Origin: a virus
UHGV virus genome: UHGV-1718161
Strand: one strand, 5' to 3'
Length of the DNA stretch: 10,522 nucleotides
Positions 895 to 10,516 of the stretch are shown here, one piece after another. Position numbers and translations under genes: made by a program. The stretch's first letter is position 1; each line of letters starts with the position of its first letter. Under the pieces are notes generated by a model. It did not search any database and had not been told where the DNA came from. It worked only from the letters and a program-made list of their open reading frames with translations.

Positions 895-1836
895 TCACCC
901 CCTGAATCCTGCCGGGATCTGGCTGTAGTCCACGTTGTCGTAACTGGCTTTGAAGTACGGGTCTTCGCGTTTTTCGGTGTACGTGCTGACGGACGGCGAT
1001 AAGCGCAGGGAAAGCTCATCCCATTTTTCCCGCAGCTTCGACGGGCTGAGCACGTTACGGCACCAGAACGGATCGCGGCTGACGCGGCTGTACATCTCGC
1101 AGATTTGTTTGTGAGTACGACCATCCTGCACACACATCAGGCGAATTTCGTTTGCCCAGGCTGTCCAGTTCGGTTCTTTGGGACGAACCACCTCGCCGTC
1201 ACATTCGGCGGCCTGCTCGTACAGGGCGATGATTTTTTTCCAGAGCCACTGTGCGCAGGTCAAATCATCCTGCGTTCCCCACTGGCGCTTTTTAGGGCTG
1301 AATACAACCGCATTAGGATGGCGAGTTAAAAACTCCTGTTCAGCCGTCTGCGTGTCCGGTTGCGAAGCGTCCGGACGAGAAGTTTTTTTATCTGACGGAT
1401 CATGTTTTGATTTTACTGACGGATCCCCGCCAGATTCTGACGGGTGAAAACCCGCTTTTTTGCCAGATTTCGACGCATCAAATTTTGACGGGTCAGATTT
1501 TGATGCGTCAGATTTTGACGGGTCAGAATCTGACAATTGAGAAAATGCCGCTGCCTGAAGCTTCGCAACGTTAAGCTGATAAACATTCGACGCATTGCGG
1601 TTACCCTGGCGACGCGCCTTACGCGTTAACCAGCCTTCTGCTTCCAGCCGTGCGATAGCCGTTCTGACGGTACTCATCCCCGCGCCAATCTGACGGGCAA
1701 TGGTTTCAATTGATGGCCAGCACACACCTTCGTCATTACTGAAATCAGCCAGGCGGGCCATAATTGCCACGCTGGATAATTTCATGCCTGACGCAGCGCA
1801 ACCATCCCATACATAGCCGGTTAATTTAGTGCTCAT
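895..1836 (-). CDS. phage replication initiation protein (lambda O-like / replisome organizer) with internal origin iterons
   Basis: 313-aa ORF; ATG at 1836-1834 with GAGG upstream. N-terminal winged-HTH-like segment (SSVAIMARLADFSNDEGVCWPSIETIARQIGAGMSTVRTAIARLEAEGWL). Central low-complexity pentapeptide repeats (DPSKS/DASKS) are encoded by 15-bp DNA direct repeats, the arrangement lambda uses for ori inside O. Sits downstream of cro/CII as expected. Confidence 0.8.
   Translation of the reverse strand: MSTKLTGYVWDGCAASGMKLSSVAIMARLADFSNDEGVCWPSIETIARQIGAGMSTVRTAIARLEAEGWLTRKARRQGNRNASNVYQLNVAKLQAAAFSQLSDSDPSKSDASKSDPSKFDASKSGKKAGFHPSESGGDPSVKSKHDPSDKKTSRPDASQPDTQTAEQEFLTRHPNAVVFSPKKRQWGTQDDLTCAQWLWKKIIALYEQAAECDGEVVRPKEPNWTAWANEIRLMCVQDGRTHKQICEMYSRVSRDPFWCRNVLSPSKLREKWDELSLRLSPSVSTYTEKREDPYFKASYDNVDYSQIPAGFRG
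1431..1538. repeat. iteron array (about 6 tandem 15-16-bp direct repeats, consensus CAGATTTTGACGGGT) inside the replication gene; probable phage origin of replication
   Basis: Seen directly: cagattctgacgggtg (1431-1446), ccagatttcgacgcat (1463-1478), caaattttgacgggt (1479-1493), cagattttgatgcgt (1494-1508), cagattttgacgggt (1509-1523), cagaatctgacaatt (1524-1538). Degenerate CTGACGGAT copies lie at about 1391-1400 and 1416-1424. Confidence 0.65.
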
Positions 1837-2184: not shown

Positions 2185-2732
2185 GCGTTAGTTTCTCCAC
2201 AGTCACGACACGCCACGGCGCCCGGAGCTGCACACTCGCGGGCGTCACTACTTTCTGAAACGCAAAAGATTTTGTAGACCAGAGCTGCATGCTCCTGCAG
2301 CTTCGAAATTGAGAGGTACAGCTCATCGTTAATTGCTGTCTTCTCATGCGGTTCCACTACACCGTCTTCAATTGCTGAACGAATCTGTCTGGAATAACTG
2401 CCGATCTGTTCAATGACTTCCAGCAGACGCTGGTTAATATCGGCATTGTCCACATCCTCGACGTCAGGAAGAGACACAAAGATGCCATTTGCAGACTGCG
2501 CCACAGCGTCAGCAATGAAGTGAGTTCCACCAGCACGTTGCAAAATCATTGCCCATCCCAGCGGGAAAATCTGATCGCCATCGGCACGAAGGCGGTTAAA
2601 TAATGCGTTCTCTGTTACGTCCAGCCAGTCAGCAGCTTCAGCGTAACCCCCCGGCAACGCTGCGATAGTTTTTCTGACAGCTTTCACGTACCACTCAGGC
2701 TGTTTTTCTACTTTCCAGTGATGCTTACCCAC
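2181..2732 (-). CDS. CII-like phage regulatory protein (phage 186 CII / CP76-type), 183 aa
   Basis: ORF track runs to 2843 but that would overlap cro. GTG at 2732-2730 with GAGGAG 6 nt upstream starts 29 nt after the cro stop. Residue pattern (...[21 protein letters not shown]...FIADAVAQ...) resembles the 186-type CII family as I remember it; family assignment is moderate. Confidence 0.6.
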
Positions 2733-2760
2733 GGTTAACTCCTCGTTTCTGTGGTTACGT

Positions 2761-3024
2761 TTACGCAGCTGAACCGCTAACTTTTGAATAGCACTCAGGT
2801 AATCCATCATTTGGATTGGGGTAAATATCAGGACGCAGTTCATGAGGGGTCACGGACCAGTTTCCCAACTCACAAAGTTGTAAAACCCGTTCTGACGGGA
2901 CTTGATTGTTAATTACCCAATTAGCGACGGATTGAGTGGACTTAAAACCAAAGTGACGGGCTACTTCAGATAAAGATTTTCCCGCAGCTTTTACTGCTTT
3001 CTCTGTGTAGTTTTGAGATGACAT
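2761..3024 (-). CDS. cro: Cro-like HTH regulator (YdaS/Cro family)
   Basis: 87-aa ORF divergent from the cI-like gene; ATG at 3024-3022 with GGAGGAG upstream. HTH segment (LSEVARHFGFKSTQSVANWV) and the ...ERVLQLCELGNWSVTPHELRPD... pattern typical of YdaS/Cro-type proteins (recalled). Confidence 0.8.
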   Translation of the reverse strand: MSSQNYTEKAVKAAGKSLSEVARHFGFKSTQSVANWVINNQVPSERVLQLCELGNWSVTPHELRPDIYPNPNDGLPECYSKVSGSAA

Positions 3025-3056
3025 ACCTTTCTCCTCCGAAATTCAGAGGGATGATG

Positions 3057-3092
3057 CTACTTAAAATAGCAAAATGCAACTACTTAAAATAG
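3057..3092. promoter_or_regulatory. OR-like operator/promoter region between divergent cro and cI: two copies of the 13-bp site CTACTTAAAATAG
   Basis: Seen directly: ctacttaaaatag at 3057-3069 and again at 3080-3092 (centres 23 bp apart), in the 70-bp gap between the cro start (3024) and the cI start. Related 13-mers with the same CTA...TAG ends occur at 3893-3905 and 5305-5317. Confidence 0.5.
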
Positions 3093-3094
3093 AA

Positions 3095-3835
3095 ATGACT
3101 AGCGTATGTGATGCGAGTAATCTTCTACCTATGGTAGAAGAACAGAAGTATCCAGATTTCGCCAAGAGACTAAACGAGCTAATGACAAACAAGGGAATTT
3201 CTGTCACCCAACTCAAAAGTCTTGTGGGCGTTACATATGAAATGGCGCGGCGATACACAATCGGCGCTGCGAAGCCTCGTGCCTCTGTCATGAATAAACT
3301 TGCATTGGCTCTGGGGGTATCAGCTTCATATTTAGAATATGGTGTTGGCGAGAGAGAAGGATGTAAGGAAATGGCAAGCATCCCCAATCCAACAAAACCC
3401 GATGTATACAGGATAGAAGTTTTGGATCTTAGCGTTAGCGCAGGACCTGGGACCTATATGCTTTCAGACTATGTTGATGTGCTCTACGCCATTGAGTTCA
3501 CAACAGAGCATGCCCGTTCTCTTTTCGGTAATCGTTCTCAAGATGATATTAAAGTTATGACTGTAAATGGCGACAGCATGTCCCCTACTCTAGTTTCCGG
3601 AGATCGACTGTTTGTCGACATTTCTGTTCGCAACTTCCAAACTGATGGTGTTTACTCTTTCGTTTATGGTAAGACGTTCCACGTTAAACGTCTACAAATG
3701 CAAGGCAACAAACTCGCCGTTCTTTCGGATAATCCAGCCTATGAGAAATGGTACATTGATGAGAAGTCCCAAGATCAACTTTATGTTATGGGCAAAGCAT
3801 TGATACACGAATCAATTAAATACAACCGGCTTTAG
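3095..3835 (+). CDS. cI: cI-type prophage repressor (N-terminal XRE-family HTH, C-terminal LexA-like S24 peptidase domain)
   Basis: HTH (FAKRLNELMTNKGISVTQLKSLVGVTYEMARRY), S24 serine motif (VNGDSMSPTL) and downstream catalytic Lys (FHVKRL). Start is ambiguous: the ORF-track ATG at 3074 lies between the two operator copies, so I prefer ATG 3095 (leaderless-style); ATG 3131 is also possible. Stop TAG 3833-3835. Confidence 0.85.
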   Translation: MTSVCDASNLLPMVEEQKYPDFAKRLNELMTNKGISVTQLKSLVGVTYEMARRYTIGAAKPRASVMNKLALALGVSASYLEYGVGEREGCKEMASIPNPTKPDVYRIEVLDLSVSAGPGTYMLSDYVDVLYAIEFTTEHARSLFGNRSQDDIKVMTVNGDSMSPTLVSGDRLFVDISVRNFQTDGVYSFVYGKTFHVKRLQMQGNKLAVLSDNPAYEKWYIDEKSQDQLYVMGKALIHESIKYNRL

Positions 3836-4006
3836 TTCTTCGTTTAGACTATAGAACTAAAGGTAAAAAAAATAATATTTAGCAAGCAAGTGCTATTACT
3901 AATAGTTGTTTTACTCTCTTATTTTTATTAAACATTATCATTAACAATATAAAATAATTACCCAGCGTAAATTACAATATGCTGGGGGTCGAAAGGATAG
4001 AGAAAC

Positions 4007-5083
4007 ATGACAAAATCAATTTGTTTTTTTAATCATAAAGGTGGGGTAAGTAAAACCACAACAACCTTCAATCTTGGATGGGCACTTGCGGATGAAGGCA
4101 AGAAAGTATTGATGGTTGACCTTGATTCGCAATGTAATCTAACAGGAATGGTTCTTGGCTATGAAAAGATTGATGAGGGTTTAGATTCTTTTTATTCTAG
4201 CAGAGATAACTTAACTCTTGGACCTATTGTAGAATATTTGATTAATGGCGGACAACCTGAAGCATACCTTGAAAAAGAAACGGGAAAATTACACCCTACA
4301 CTGCATGAAAACCTTCTGCTTCTTCCCGGACATTTAGATGTTTCGGACTTAGATTCACAGATAAGTGTTTCTCTAAAAATTGCTGCTGGTATTCCTGCTA
4401 CAAGAAATATACCAGGGAACCTGCCAAAAATATTACAGCTAATCGCCTTGAAGAATAATATTGATTACATTCTTTATGATCTCAGCCCTAATGTTGGAGG
4501 TTTAAATGAAGTAGTTCTCATGTCAAGTGACTATTTTATCGTACCTGTAGCTCCAGACTTTTTTTGCTGGCAAGCAATTCGCTCTCTCTCAAAAAATATA
4601 CCTCGCTGGCACAAAGAATTAGCATTATTTAAAGAAAATAATGATGGTAACTCTTCACAATCAATTAAAAATGCACCGCAGTTTCTAGGTATGATTCAGC
4701 AGAGATACAGGCCGCGTAAAGGAGCACCTGTAAAATCTTTCGAAAAATGGATGGCAGCTATCCGTGATGCTGTTGATTCGATCTTAGTGCCAAATCTAGA
4801 AAAAATTACCTGCATAATTCCACGAGATAAAGTGCAACATGCAATTAACAAAACAACAGTCAGTGGAGATTTATCAGCCTATGATCTTGCGCATATTTCC
4901 GATTTCAACTCATTAATCGCAATAAGCCAACAACTAGCGACACCTGTTTTCTCCATCAGTGATCAGCAAATTCGCGATTCAGGGCAATTTGGGCATGCCT
5001 TAAATACAATGAAATCAAGCAGAGACGCCTTTAACGAACAATTTAAAGGGCTGGCTCAACGAGTTCTAGAACTTACAAAGTAA
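4007..5083 (+). CDS. ParA/MinD-superfamily ATPase with a roughly 120-aa C-terminal extension (358 aa); candidate lysogen-expressed exclusion/defence protein
   Basis: Deviant Walker A NHKGGVSKTT (res 9-18), ParA-type LMVDLDSQCNL, Walker-B-like ILYDLSP. AAGGA/GAGAAA RBS before ATG 4007. Sits in a visibly AT-rich segment directly downstream of cI in the same orientation and is followed by an intrinsic terminator. No ParB-like partner ORF or parS-like repeats nearby. Confidence 0.85.
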   Translation: MTKSICFFNHKGGVSKTTTTFNLGWALADEGKKVLMVDLDSQCNLTGMVLGYEKIDEGLDSFYSSRDNLTLGPIVEYLINGGQPEAYLEKETGKLHPTLHENLLLLPGHLDVSDLDSQISVSLKIAAGIPATRNIPGNLPKILQLIALKNNIDYILYDLSPNVGGLNEVVLMSSDYFIVPVAPDFFCWQAIRSLSKNIPRWHKELALFKENNDGNSSQSIKNAPQFLGMIQQRYRPRKGAPVKSFEKWMAAIRDAVDSILVPNLEKITCIIPRDKVQHAINKTTVSGDLSAYDLAHISDFNSLIAISQQLATPVFSISDQQIRDSGQFGHALNTMKSSRDAFNEQFKGLAQRVLELTK

Positions 5084-5090
5084 TGCATGT

Positions 5091-5127
5091 GCCCGGCCGC
5101 ATAACCGGGCTTTACTCTTCTTTCTCC
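5091..5127 (+). terminator. rho-independent terminator after the ParA-like gene
   Basis: GCCCGG (5091-5096), loop ccgcataa, CCGGGC (5105-5110), followed by a T-rich tract tttactcttctttct. Confidence 0.6.
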
Positions 5128-5268
5128 CTGATTAATCTCATAAAAAACTCCCTCCTCATAATTCACTATGCTCAATACCTACTCCAACTTCGTGCGATAT
5201 TTTCAGTTTACAGCATAGTAAATCAGCAAAAACATTTAACTTTCAATTAATTATAGAAAAATCATAGA

Positions 5269-5326
5269 CAACAACAAATATCTACTTTTTGTTGTTGATT
5301 TTTGCTACTTTAAGTAGCAACATAAT
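5269..5326 (+). promoter_or_regulatory. pL/OL-like regulatory region: two adjacent palindromes plus a -10-like CATAAT
   Basis: Inverted repeat caacaacaaa (5269-5278) / tttgttgttg (5288-5297). Perfect 19-bp palindrome ttgctacttTaagtagcaa (5302-5320) containing the operator-like 13-mer CTACTTTAAGTAG (5305-5317). CATAAT at 5321-5326, TTGATT at 5295-5300 (spacing not ideal). Position mirrors lambda oL/pL after the rex slot. Confidence 0.35.
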
Positions 5327-5404
5327 GTAAGCTATCACGGACAGGCAGGACGCCCACGAAGTAGCCTCCTGGGACATATGAAGTCCAGGATGATTCGTTA
5401 GCAA

Positions 5405-5428
5405 CAAAAAAGCGCCCTACAGGACGCT
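5405..5428 (-). terminator. rho-independent terminator of the minus-strand 173-aa gene
   Basis: On the minus strand: AGCGTCC-TGTA-GGGCGCT (7-bp stem with one G-U pair) followed by TTTTTTGTTGC, about 40 nt after the stop at 5471. Confidence 0.55.
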
Positions 5429-5430
5429 TA

Positions 5431-5443
5431 GCTCTTTAACAAT
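5431..5443 (+). promoter_or_regulatory. boxA-like antitermination motif (GCTCTTTAACAAT), rrn/phage-21-type
   Basis: Plus-strand gcttaGCTCTTTAACAATctggg matches the rrn boxA core TGCTCTTTAACAA and resembles the phage 21 nut boxA as I recall it. Lies about 110 nt downstream of the pL-like palindrome and 2 nt after a hairpin (boxB-before-boxA order, as in rrn leaders). Confidence 0.4.
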
Positions 5444-5470
5444 CTGGGTATCATCCAACCAATGCAAGAT

Positions 5471-5992
5471 TTAAGGAATCCAAGGCGAATTCAGATCTCG
5501 CCCCAACTCACGTAATGATCTTGGTCGTTCGTACATCGGATTTTTTTCCATAAGAAATTTATTTTCACAGTGAAGGCAACGGCTTGTAAGAAAATGAGAA
5601 GTTTTACCTACTGGAAGCGGATGAAGTATCGATTTTATATTTTTGGAATAACAAAGTGGGCACAGATGCACAGTTATTTCTTTTCCACTCACAATTTCAT
5701 TTTTAGAGTAAACAAAAGCACCAGAGTCAAGCTGATCAAGGACATATCCTTCTACCTTGGCACAAAAATCTTCAAACTCTGCAATTTTTGCTTTGAGATG
5801 CATCACCTCTTCATCACGAAGGCGGATCGCATCGCCAAGAGAGAAGCATTCTGCCTGAAGCGTGATTAGTTTGTTCTGGAGTTCAATGGTTGCAGCTTTA
5901 ACTTCTGCATCCGTTTTCGCGTCATTAATAACCTTAGCAAGACCGGCAGTCTCCTTTATAGCGGCCATAGCCGCAGACAGTTCAGCTATCAC
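5471..5992 (-). CDS. hypothetical coiled-coil protein with a C-terminal C4 zinc ribbon (173 aa)
   Basis: N-terminal 80 residues are Ala/Lys/Glu-rich and helical; CPLC (111-114) and CLHC (139-142) form CxxC-x24-CxxC. ORF-track start is a GTG at 5992; the first ATG is at 5968-5966, neither with a strong SD. Own terminator downstream. Antisense plus-strand ORFs (5570..5869, 5862..6056) look like low-complexity shadows. Confidence 0.7.
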   Translation of the reverse strand: MIAELSAAMAAIKETAGLAKVINDAKTDAEVKAATIELQNKLITLQAECFSLGDAIRLRDEEVMHLKAKIAEFEDFCAKVEGYVLDQLDSGAFVYSKNEIVSGKEITVHLCPLCYSKNIKSILHPLPVGKTSHFLTSRCLHCENKFLMEKNPMYERPRSLRELGRDLNSPWIP

Positions 5993-6052: not shown

Positions 6053-6461
6053 ATAACTAGGTCCACCTCGCCTGATGTGGCTAAAAGCAGGCACATAACA
6101 GCTAAGTATTTTCAACCAGAGAGAATCCTTAGCGTTGTGGTGAATGCGGCTCAGCGCACGCGGGTTAAGGTTGAGGCTGACAGTCGACCTTCTGTGGATA
6201 CCCACCCGCCTGGTGTGCAACCTTCGCCAGGCACCGGGAGGCACCCGGCACCACAACTTTATGCTGTGTGTAGTCCTGGCGGTATCAGCTTGTACCCTTG
6301 CTTCCGGCTGGTACCGTCCTTTTTACAAAACAGAGAAGAGTATCACCGGACGACGGGCTCATAACCCAATCCATCCGGGCGGCTGCCACCGCAGGTGTTC
6401 TTCTCTGTTTTGTGGAGAAACCAACCGACCTTGCAGGGTCGATATGATGGGGAGCAGCAAA

Positions 6462-9036: not shown

Positions 9037-9386
9037 TGGAGCCATACAGCCTCACACTCGATGAGGCCTGTCATTTTCTCAAGATATCCAGACCGACTGC
9101 CATTAACTGGATACGCACAGGGCGTCTTCAGGCAACACGCAAAGATCCCACTAAGAATAAATCTCCTTACCTCACAACACGACAAGCCTGCATTGCGGCT
9201 CTTCAGTCTCCGCTGCATACTGTCCAGGTGAGCGCGGGTGATGGCATAACAGAGGAAAGAAAATGTCACTCTTCCGCAGAGGTGAAATATGGTACGCCAG
9301 TTTCACATTGCCGAACGGTAAAAGATTTAAACAGTCTCTTGGAACAAAGGACAAAAGGCAGGCGACAGAACTCCATGACAAGCTAA
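9036..9386 (+). CDS. xis: excisionase (P22 Xis-like, 116 aa)
   Basis: ATG 9036 overlaps the upstream stop (TAATG), with GAGGTG upstream. The ORF-track frame extends upstream to 8952 but coupling favours 9036. Lies immediately upstream of int and overlaps it (9263-9386). Sequence ([38 protein letters not shown]...) matches my memory of P22 Xis. Confidence 0.75.
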
Positions 9387-10426
9387 AGGCTGAAGCATGG
9401 CGGGTCAGCAAACTTGGTGAAATACCTGATATAACGTTCGAGGAAGCGTGTATCAGGTGGCTTGAAGAGAAAGCACATAAAAAATCACTGGACGATGACA
9501 AAAGCCGGATCGGATTCTGGCTTCAACATTTCGCAGGAATGCAACTAAGAGACATTACTGAATCAAAAATTTATTCAGCAATGCAGAAAATGACGAACCG
9601 GCGTCATGAGGAAAACTGGAAACTCAGGACAGAAGCATGCAGAAAAAAAGGGAAACCTGTTCCAGAATACACGCCAAAACCAGCGTCCGTTGCAACGAAG
9701 GCTACGCATCTTTCATTTATAAAAGCCCTACTAAGAGCCGCAGAGCGTGAATGGAAAATGCTGGATAAGGCACCAATTATTAAAGTGCCTCAACCAAAGA
9801 ATAAACGGATCCGCTGGCTGGAGCCCCATGAAGCACAAAGGCTGATTGATGAATGTCCGGAGCCATTAAAGTCTGTTGTTGAATTTGCACTGGCAACAGG
9901 CTTAAGACGCTCGAACATCATCAACCTTGAATGGCAACAAATAGACATGCAGCGCCGGGTGGCATGGATAAACCCGGAAGAGAGTAAATCAAACCGCGCA
10001 ATTGGCGTTGCGCTGAATGATACTGCATGTCGCGTTTTGAAAAAACAAATCGGGAATCATCACCGTTGGGTATTTGTGTACAAGGAAAGCTGTACCAAAC
10101 CAGACGGAACGAAAGCGCCAACAGTAAGGAAGATGCGGTATGACGCAAACACAGCCTGGAAAGCGGCGCTGAGACGGGCTGGTATTGATGATTTCAGATT
10201 TCACGACTTGAGACACACCTGGGCAAGTTGGCTGGTTCAAGCCGGAGTCCCGTTGTCAGTGTTACAGGAAATGGGAGGCTGGGAGTCTATCGAAATGGTT
10301 CGTCGATATGCTCACCTTGCACCTAATCACCTTACCGAACACGCACGGCAAATAGACTCGATCCTGAACCCATCGGTCCCAAATTCGTCCCAGTCAAAAA
10401 ATAAGGAAGGTACTAATGATGTGTAA
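9263..10426 (+). CDS. int: tyrosine-family site-specific integrase (P22 Int-like, 387 aa)
   Basis: GAGGAA RBS before ATG 9263. Catalytic signature: R in ATGLRRSN, H-x-x-R in [11 protein letters not shown], Tyr in VRRYAHL. Near-identical to my memory of P22 integrase, which uses thrW. Ends 14 bp before the tRNA 3' end. Confidence 0.95.
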
Positions 10427-10440
10427 CTTATTGATTTAAA

Positions 10441-10516
10441 TGGTGCCGATAATAGGAGTCGAACCTACGACCTTCGCATTACGAATGCGCTGCTCTACCA
10501 ACTGAGCTATATCGGC
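10441..10516 (-). tRNA. thrW: tRNA-Thr (anticodon CGU), thrW-type; prophage attachment site at its 3' end
   Basis: Reverse complement reads GCCGATATAGCTCAGTTGGTAGAGCAGCGCATTCGTAATGCGAAGGTCGTAGGTTCGACTCCTATTATCGGCACCA. Acceptor stem GCCGATA/TATCGGC, anticodon loop TTCGTAA (CGT), T-loop TTCGACT, encoded CCA. Confidence 0.9.

Follow-up and report, generated by a model that had tools for sequence, protein, structure and literature searches.

The question raised by this locus is what a repeated, partially palindromic 13-mer is doing in and beyond the gap between a cro-like gene and a cI repressor gene in a stretch of 10,522 nucleotides of UHGV virus genome UHGV-1718161 (hereafter the window; positions are counted from its first letter). 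A preliminary description of this DNA had read the 13-mer as the operator of an immunity switch, with further copies at a distance. Sequence and comparison with related loci now make it very probable that the motif represents the operator set of an uncharacterised cI repressor of the lambda/HK022 type, with three sites at the switch itself (right operators, OR1 to OR3) and two at the early leftward promoter PL (left operators, OL1 and OL2). Judged from the same sequences, the locus is a switch of the HK022/lambda kind with a new immunity specificity, since geometry and cI are HK022-like while the operators are different, and since no phage of the INPHARED collection shares the immunity region at the DNA level (6% coverage) or has a helix-turn-helix more than 49% identical to that of cI. 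For the latter reason, no known phage can lend its name to the region. The architecture of the switch is ordinary, and its features will not surprise a phage geneticist.

Proposed operators and promoters of the switch

The cro-like gene and cI are divergent and separated by 106 bp, an arrangement of repressor and cro around a short regulatory gap as expected of a lambdoid CI/Cro switch. Proposed operators and predicted elements of the early rightward promoter (PR), the promoter for repressor maintenance (PRM) and PL are as follows; the operators carry no strand, and their scores are those of a matrix introduced below.

2761-3024, reverse strand: cro-like gene, first gene of the PR operon, 87 amino acids, YdaS-type helix-turn-helix (Pfam PF15943, E = 2e-11)
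3051-3056, reverse strand: predicted PR -10, CATCAT, directly following OR1, assigned from placement
3057-3069: OR1, CTACTTAAAATAG, within the 17-nt PR spacer, score 17.5
3074-3079, reverse strand: predicted PR -35, TTGCAT (ATGCAA on the forward strand), with a 17-nt spacer to CATCAT
3080-3092: OR2, CTACTTAAAATAG, abutting the PR -35 and 2 bp from the PRM -35, score 17.5
3095-3100, forward strand: predicted PRM -35, ATGACT, doubling as the alternative in-frame ATG at 3095
3118-3123, forward strand: predicted PRM -10, TAATCT, separated by 17 nt from ATGACT and by 7 nt from the A of the ATG at 3131
3125-3137: OR3, CTACCTATGGTAG, centred on the cI ATG at 3131 and 45 bp from OR2, score 16.5
3131-3835, forward strand: cI repressor gene, 234 amino acids, N-terminal HTH_3 domain (PF01381) and C-terminal LexA-like S24 autopeptidase (PF00717)
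5282-5294: OL2, CTACTTTTTGTTG, right half degenerate, 23 bp before OL1, score 14.0
5295-5300, forward strand: predicted PL -35, TTGATT, mirroring the PR -35, assigned from placement
5305-5317: OL1, CTACTTTAAGTAG, core of a 19-bp palindrome (5302-5320), within the 17-nt PL spacer, best score (20.6)
5318-5323, forward strand: predicted PL -10, CAACAT, with a putative start near 5330

The operator consensus CTAC-TTWAA-GTAG is 13 bp long, with arms of 4 bp and a centre of 5 bp. The two identical copies of CTACTTAAAATAG reported earlier between the cro-like gene and cI, 23 bp apart from start to start, were verified, as were the related 13-mers at 3893-3905 (CTATTACTAATAG) and 5305-5317 and the 9+1+9 palindrome TTGCTACTTTAAGTAGCAA that contains the 5305 site. 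Two sites had been overlooked, OR3 and OL2, the former being the fifth match to the loose pattern given next. The strict pattern CTAYTWNWARTAG has four matches in the window against 0.01 expected from shuffles, and the loose pattern CTAYNNNNNRTAG (motif class CTAYN5RTAG) has five against 0.28, a count reached in no shuffle. An empirical background was provided by 1.22 Mb of DNA from other lambdoid phages, obtained for a different purpose: the strict pattern has no match in it, and the loose pattern occurs at 0.0196 per kb, compared to 0.475 per kb in the window, i.e. an approximately 24-fold enrichment. Bins of less than 35% GC, amounting to 33.8 kb of phage DNA, contain no match. The possibility that the motif is just as frequent in AT-rich DNA, which the preliminary description had named as evidence against its own proposal, is thus not supported, the motif being enriched over phage DNA and absent from AT-rich bins.

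Six of the 24 background matches lie in two IMG/VR contigs, where they form operator triplets at spacings of 22 and 45 bp whose centres have diverged (CTACATAAAGTAG, CTACGAAAAATAG, CTACCTATGGTAG; L061 3273-3352 and L123 2049-2128). From their sequence, these contigs are probably further members of this immunity group.

The matrix, symmetrised and derived from 14 distinct conserved sites, gives the five supported sites the scores listed; all are confined to the two regulatory gaps, and a scan of the window revealed no other site above background. Two additional candidates were rejected. A site within cro (2961-2973, a full match in loci L003, L004 and L010) tracks the choice of a synonymous Leu codon (CTA, TTA, CTG) and is therefore a by-product of the coding sequence LSEVA, and a third OL site at 5244-5256 scores 6.4, i.e. 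background, with nothing conserved upstream of OL2. Full-text literature searches for the operator 13-mers returned nothing relevant.

Nine loci encoding repressors 61-83% identical to that of the window were fetched protein by protein. Some repressors of this range bear the names Klebsiella, Citrobacter or Gibbsiella in their source records, and the replication modules of the loci vary (O/P-like or helicase-primase). A full set of sites is common to nine loci, these being the window and eight of those fetched: OR1, usually CTACTTAAAGTAG; OR2, CTACTTAAAATAG; OR3, CTACCTATGGTAG; OL2, CTACTTTTTGTAG; and OL1, CTACTTTAAGTAG. Spacings are 22-23 bp between OR1 and OR2, 45 bp between OR2 and OR3, 23 bp between OL2 and OL1, and 1449-2911 bp between OR1 and OL1. 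OR1 is kept as the form given or a similar one throughout, OR2, ranked as the most conserved site, has the same sequence in seven of the nine loci, OR3 is identical in all nine and OL1 in eight. The promoter elements are recognisable in the same places. At the position of the PR -35, related loci have TTGCTA, TTGATC or TTGTCA, and at that of its -10 CATTAT, TATTAT or CAATAT (pairs elsewhere being TTGCTA/CATTAT, TTGATC/TATTAT and TTGTCA/CATCAT). ATGAC[TG] lies 2 bp past OR2 in nine of nine loci, and the PRM -10 TAATCT is kept in eight, with TAACCT in L010. Further afield, a scan of genome contigs with the N-terminal domain alignment yielded a single distant locus, in a Psychrobacter metagenome-assembled genome, which serves as an outgroup only; its repressor is 53% identical, and the repressor gene is preceded by three sites of this format.

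Moreover, the operator sequence tracks the DNA-binding domain of the repressor. In loci L012 and L013, the repressor has the same C-terminal domain combined with an HK022-type helix-turn-helix; no CTAY..RTAG site is found in these two loci, and GAAC-N5-GTWC sites occupy the equivalent positions, one of them centred on the ATG. The earlier assignment of the 13-mers as OR operators is thereby supported, as their position and spacing are kept in related loci and the motif is replaced by another when the helix-turn-helix differs.

PR, PRM, PL and their start sites are predictions, based on comparative placement and conservation. OR1, OR2 and OR3 overlap the predicted PR and PRM elements, and because OR1 fills the PR spacer and OR2 abuts the PR -35, repressor bound at both would shut off cro and the replication genes. 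OR2, at 2 bp from the PRM -35, has the position from which lambda CI activates PRM, and may act likewise. OR3, over the cI ATG and the likely transcription start of a leaderless cI mRNA, could serve negative autoregulation or repression by Cro; a sharing of the cI sites by Cro is an assumption only, because the helix-turn-helix of the Cro-like protein is unrelated. The translation of cI includes the Ala-Gly in SAGPG, the Ser in GDSM and the Lys in VKRL, and the repressor may be subject to SOS induction by autocleavage.

The stretch that separates the predicted PR -10 from the cro ATG contains an inverted repeat (3031-3049), of which one arm is the cro Shine-Dalgarno sequence. Across loci its arms are kept and its centre is variable (CCTCTAAAGTTTAGAGG, CCTCTAACATGTAGAGG, CCTCTTCTATTTAAGAGG). 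The second arm covers roughly -6 to -2 of the predicted PR, and may therefore lie outside the PR transcript.

The site at 5305 had been suggested to be a distal OL, and this proposal gains in substance. Segments 3051-3096 and 5278-5323 were identified by a repeat finder as a 46-nt inverted repeat, 80% complementary, so that the distal site is a mirror copy of OR2-(-35)-OR1-(-10) rather than a lone palindrome. OL2 and OL1 with the -35 and -10 elements mirror OR2, OR1 and PR, and the cluster lies 1.45-2.9 kb from OR (2.25 kb in the window) whatever the cargo in between. It is kept in all related loci and reads in the direction of cI, toward xis and int. Five related loci have CTACTTTTTGTAG at the position of OL2, 23 bp before OL1, and the hexamers of PL are represented by TTGATT, TTGCTT, TTGATA or TTGTCA at -35 and by CAATAT or GAATAT at -10. 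The OL2-(-35)-OL1-(-10) module would thus control PL, from which transcription would proceed toward xis and int. By analogy with HK022 CI, cooperative binding and looping between OL and OR are a reasonable expectation.

The cI start, the 3893 site and other readings

Three ATG codons come into question as the start of cI (3074, 3095 and 3131), none of them preceded by a Shine-Dalgarno sequence. The preliminary description had dismissed the first and hesitated between the other two. Indeed, the ATG at 3074, between the OR copies, belongs to the PR -35, since TTGCAT is the reverse complement of 3074-3079 and lies 17 nt from CATCAT. As to the remaining two, 3131 is probably the start, although with some reserve. 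The Prokaryotic Genome Annotation Pipeline (PGAP) starts cI at 3131 in Escherichia coli EC93, NCBI records use the equivalent codon, and the alignment with HK022 cI runs end to end from residue 1 of the 234-residue form. The sequence upstream of 3131 is pyrimidine-rich, the -10-like TAATCT ends 7 nt before the ATG, and HK022-type loci have the same geometry, with TATTAT at the identical distance. From these features, the cI mRNA is probably leaderless or has a leader of 1 nt.

The other reading, in which cI is a 246-residue protein translated from 3095 on a leadered mRNA, with 3131 as an internal Met and the conserved DNA there coding for RNLLPMVEE instead of forming an operator, is unlikely, yet the most serious of the alternatives considered here. 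The frame between 3095 and 3131 is open in nine of nine enterobacterial loci, with about five independent spacer sequences, which makes a 12-residue N-terminal extension possible and weighs against the start preferred above; many gene callers report 246-residue products, and an in-frame ATGAC likewise occurs 15 codons upstream in HK022-type loci. The absence of a Shine-Dalgarno sequence at 3095, the annotations and the HK022 alignment speak for 3131, as does the nature of the putative extension, which is hypervariable and has no third-position bias: the 17-nt stretch upstream of 3131 shows 9, 6 and 7 changes at codon positions 1, 2 and 3, compared to 50, 48 and 90 in cI itself. In distant locus L002, ATGAC also follows OR2, with a TAGAAT -10 at 17 nt, but the frame closes after six codons. 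Finally, the block at 3131 is a perfect 21-bp palindrome (3121-3141, TCTTCTACC-TAT-GGTAGAAGA) with OR3 as its core, and its fit to the operator pattern is not explained by coding constraint alone.

Four features between cI and the gene beyond PL are needed for the other alternatives.

3893-3905, no strand: CTATTACTAATAG palindrome upstream of the ParA-like gene, a loose-pattern match and doubtful operator
4007-5083, forward strand: cargo gene for a ParA/MinD-family ATPase (Pfam AAA_31, CbiA)
5091-5110, forward strand: terminator-like hairpin at the end of the cI-ParA unit, six G-C pairs followed by TTTACTCTTC
5471-5992, reverse strand: gene for a 173-residue protein, with its own terminator at 5429-5410

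Several other observations weigh against an operator set as proposed. All promoter hexamers are weak matches to consensus, and a generic promoter scan missed the proposed promoters, detecting only TTAAAA-18-TAAAAT inside OR1-OR2. OL2 of the window is mismatched in a conserved arm (GTTG for GTAG). The distance between OR2 and OR3 is 45 bp, as opposed to 23 bp in lambda and 33 bp in HK022, so that cooperative arrangements may differ. PL faces the reverse-strand gene at 5471-5992 with its own terminator, and read-through would be needed. One could suppose that the 13-mers are sites for Cro alone or for a host factor, or else AT-rich promoter or UP-element sequence, and that the distal palindrome is a terminator hairpin. 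The palindrome does lie between two convergent terminators (5091-5110, forward, and 5429-5410, reverse), the Cro-like protein has its unrelated helix-turn-helix, and binding of cI to the 13-mers is deduced from sequence. Such an explanation is nevertheless very improbable. The motif switches with the cI helix-turn-helix while C-terminal domain and layout remain constant, and the 13-mers share format, register and central bases with the HK022 sites obtained by pattern scan, HK022 CI having been reported to bind and loop OL and OR (PMC8053113). AT-richness is at odds with the lack of matches in AT-rich phage DNA, and a 9+1+9 palindrome, with a 1-nt loop and no T-run, cannot be an intrinsic terminator.

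The preliminary description went further in suggesting that the repressor might also bind CTATTACTAATAG at 3893-3905 and so regulate the ParA-like gene. This extension of the operator set is not supported and appears doubtful. The site fits CTAYNNNNNRTAG and forms a perfect palindrome (6+1+6) within the 171 bp that precede the gene, its deviations (T at position 4, A at position 6) each occur singly in some real half-site, and the background rate gives a probability of about 1% for a match in this one gap. Scored with the matrix, however, it reaches 7.1, which is indistinguishable from random positions (6.9, 6.8, 6.5), compared to 14-20.6 for true sites, and about 0.2 chance matches are expected per window. 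No other locus with the same repressor has the site, as the cargo differs, and where ParA homologues (73-88% identity) occur in other contexts, the DNA before them is unrelated and has no 3893-like site. The site also lies some 25 nt upstream of the only promoter-like match in the gap (3929-3958), a poor location for repression. In E. coli genomes the cargo invariably occurs together with this cI, at an identity of 99% or more, so that they offer no independent test. In a narrower reading, 3893-3905 may be a weak operator tying expression of the cargo gene to the level of repressor.

The five-site operator set outside this gap is unaffected by the nature of the cargo. The interval between cI and OL (3836-5130; equivalents in L003-L011 and L028) is a cargo slot with contents that differ in almost every related locus: a HigB-like gene with two unknown genes, two unknown genes, HipA_2 with DUF3037, an unrelated ParA-like gene, or almost nothing. 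It is thereby marked as a place for ParA-like, toxin-antitoxin and HipA-like genes. In Salmonella prophages, a ParA homologue of 73% identity is found in this slot behind an unrelated repressor, and homologues in very distant hosts are 60-65% identical. PADLOC gave only P-loop-level matches for the ParA-like protein and no match for the 173-residue protein. The hairpin after cI (3832-3862) has no T-run, and the ParA-like gene may therefore simply be co-transcribed from PRM, by analogy with rexAB in lambda.

The ParA-like gene of L007, the locus of the Gibbsiella-named repressor P0035, was rejected as a check on the 3893 site, its product being 26% identical and its upstream region unrelated. 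That region (L007 4880-5010) contains at least five direct repeats, TGACCTGC/CTCCTGC, which look like iterons or a partition site.

The predicted PL leader RNA and the prophage

The more unusual item of the window is not the switch itself but an RNA predicted at the beginning of the PL transcript, which is unannotated in all records examined.

5337-5398, forward strand: structured leader RNA with which the predicted PL transcript begins, 62 nt, conserved and covarying

The leader has an invariant core of 22 nt (GGCAGGACGCCCACGAAGUAGCC) and two helices that covary. RNAalifold proposes a fold made up of a closing helix and two hairpins, one small and invariant, the other covarying, with compensatory changes in 8 of 15 pairs. 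Among 67 distinct leader sequences from IMG/VR, 94.9% of cells are paired (74.9% in shuffles) and 208 double changes are found (72.5 in shuffles); sliding the alignment as a control brings pairing down to 22-42%. The single-sequence fold is not significant (z = -1.65), and support for the structure comes from covariation. The leader is present in loci L003-L010, L016-L024 and L030-L149; it occurs in at least 120 viral contigs and in phages SfV, SfII, SfIV, ST64B, mEp460, mEp237, SPN3UB, SEN34, YeP1, AH07 and phiNP. Its place is always just past PL, irrespective of immunity type and in 112 distinct promoter contexts, and in those phages it follows a strong TTGACA-type promoter carrying the operators of the phage in question. 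Terminators lie downstream of it. Rfam has no match for 5330-5410, full-text literature searches for the core returned nothing relevant, and a covariance model detected no second copy in the window, including the PR operon.

The put RNA of HK022 is likewise a structured RNA of about 60-70 nt immediately after PL (PMC9378689), as is that of HK639 according to its annotation. Identity of the leader with either was rejected, since a covariance model of the leader (R1) scored 8.6 and 7.1 bits at best in the HK022 and HK639 immunity regions and nhmmer was negative; put RNAs consist of two long stem-loops, unlike the closing helix and two hairpins of the leader. The core is invariant across phages with differing early genes, which suggests a host target such as RNA polymerase. 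It is tempting to speculate that the leader represents a new class of protein-independent, polymerase-binding antiterminator, with a put-like function and an unrelated sequence, but this proposal, made by analogy, is tentative and has less than an even chance of being right. If true, it would explain how transcription from PL gets past the reverse-strand insert and the terminators and arrives at xis and int.

Two elements near the leader were observed in addition. At 5410-5442, the terminator hairpin of the 173-residue protein gene is followed on the forward strand by AGCTCTTTAACAA, a 12/12 match to the rrn-type boxA consensus, GCTCTTTAACAA. The same arrangement is found in L004 and L009, the other two loci with a reverse-strand gene after the PL leader, and the element may shield the PL transcript from Rho during its antisense passage across the insert. 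At 6104-6326 (forward strand), upstream of the yfdP-like gene, there is a sub-threshold match to Rfam STnc100 (40.5 bits, for a gathering score of 47). It is a conserved non-coding block of the early-left operon, found at the same relative place in SfV, mEp460 and ST64B (L016 3133-3348, L018 3019-3221 and L017 2852-2970).

The window derives from a lambdoid prophage that lies beside tRNA-Thr and proA in E. coli. Its right end is formed by the following features.

9263-10426: tyrosine integrase gene at the prophage end, adjoining tRNA-Thr
10444-10516: tRNA-Thr, next to proA

Positions 2700-5500 are 99.7% identical to E. coli EC93, and 109 of 5426 complete E. coli genomes (about 2%) carry the full region. 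Strains IHE3034 and APEC O18 have the region as well. On the reverse strand to the left of cro are replication and cII-like genes, the cII-like gene (PF06892) coming after cro; a cro homologue of 86-87 residues is found in the equivalent place in all related loci. To the right of the 173-residue protein gene, the forward strand carries yfdP-, yfdQ- and yfdR-like genes, xis and int. Within the replication-protein gene (895-1836, reverse strand), slightly more than four tandem 15-bp repeats (CAGATTTTGACGGGT) at 1464-1527 look like an iteron-type origin inside an initiator gene, as in lambda O.

Relation to HK022 and lambda

Of the known switches, that of HK022 is the closest in design. Its immunity region (Carlson & Little 1993, summarised in PMC8053113) comprises cI, OR1-3, OL1-3 and OFR, and its CI is reported to show cooperative binding at adjacent operators and in vivo looping between OL and OR (PMC8053113). 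The HK022 region was read directly for the present comparison, its sites being taken from a pattern scan. The two cI proteins are 42% identical over their full length (E = 1e-67). In both, the operator is a 13-mer in which arms of 4 bp flank a centre of 5 bp, O1 occupies the spacer of the lytic promoter and is immediately followed by the -10, and the cI ATG is found at OR3 start + 6. CATCAT, the PR -10 of the window, directly follows OL1 in the PL of HK022. Spacings in HK022 are 24 bp (OR1-OR2), 33 bp (OR2-OR3) and 24 bp (OL2-OL1), compared to 23, 45 and 23 bp here. The two OL1 sites, GAACTTTAAGTAC in HK022 and CTACTTTAAGTAG in the window, agree at positions 3-12, the differences being limited to the two outermost bases of each arm (GAAC..GTTC as opposed to CTAC..GTAG). 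The two phages should therefore be heteroimmune, and indeed no cross-matching sites were found in either direction, the HK022 region having GAAC/GTAC-type sites only and the window CTAC-N5-GTAG. Hence the window, as judged from sequence, is not in the HK022 immunity group, and the relationship is architectural and evolutionary.

Other differences concern the surroundings. HK022 has an additional site 267 bp beyond OR1, which fits its far-right operator OFR (PMC8053113); equivalents of OFR (about 270-300 bp beyond OR) and of OL3 were searched for in the window and not found. The Cro proteins are unrelated, and the PL leader of the window is not put RNA. OL and OR are about 0.7 kb apart in HK022 and 2.25 kb in the window, the greater distance being due to the cargo slot.

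With lambda, the window shares divergent cI and cro genes, adjacent operators 23-24 bp apart overlapping PR, one operator abutting the PRM -35, a repressor with a LexA-like autocleavage domain, accessory genes between cI and OL (rexAB in lambda), and a distance of about 2.3 kb from OL to OR. The PRM transcript of lambda is leaderless, without a Shine-Dalgarno sequence and with the -10 just upstream of the cI ATG; cI of the window likewise has no Shine-Dalgarno sequence and a -10-like hexamer just before its ATG. Unlike those of lambda, the operators are 13 bp instead of 17 bp and of unrelated sequence, only two OL sites were found, and OR3 does not cover the PRM -35 and -10 but coincides with +1 and the ATG. 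Cro belongs to another family (YdaS-type), and no N gene or nut site was identified in the window.

For one immunity group, which occurs in about 2% of complete E. coli genomes and in relatives named Klebsiella, Citrobacter and Gibbsiella, an operator code (CTAC-N5-GTAG), a site map and probable promoters are thus defined, and the group offers a convenient natural series for the evolution of specificity. In comparison with HK022, it suggests that switches of this type diversify through two outer operator bases together with the helix-turn-helix, while their geometry, including the operator at the start codon, stays fixed.

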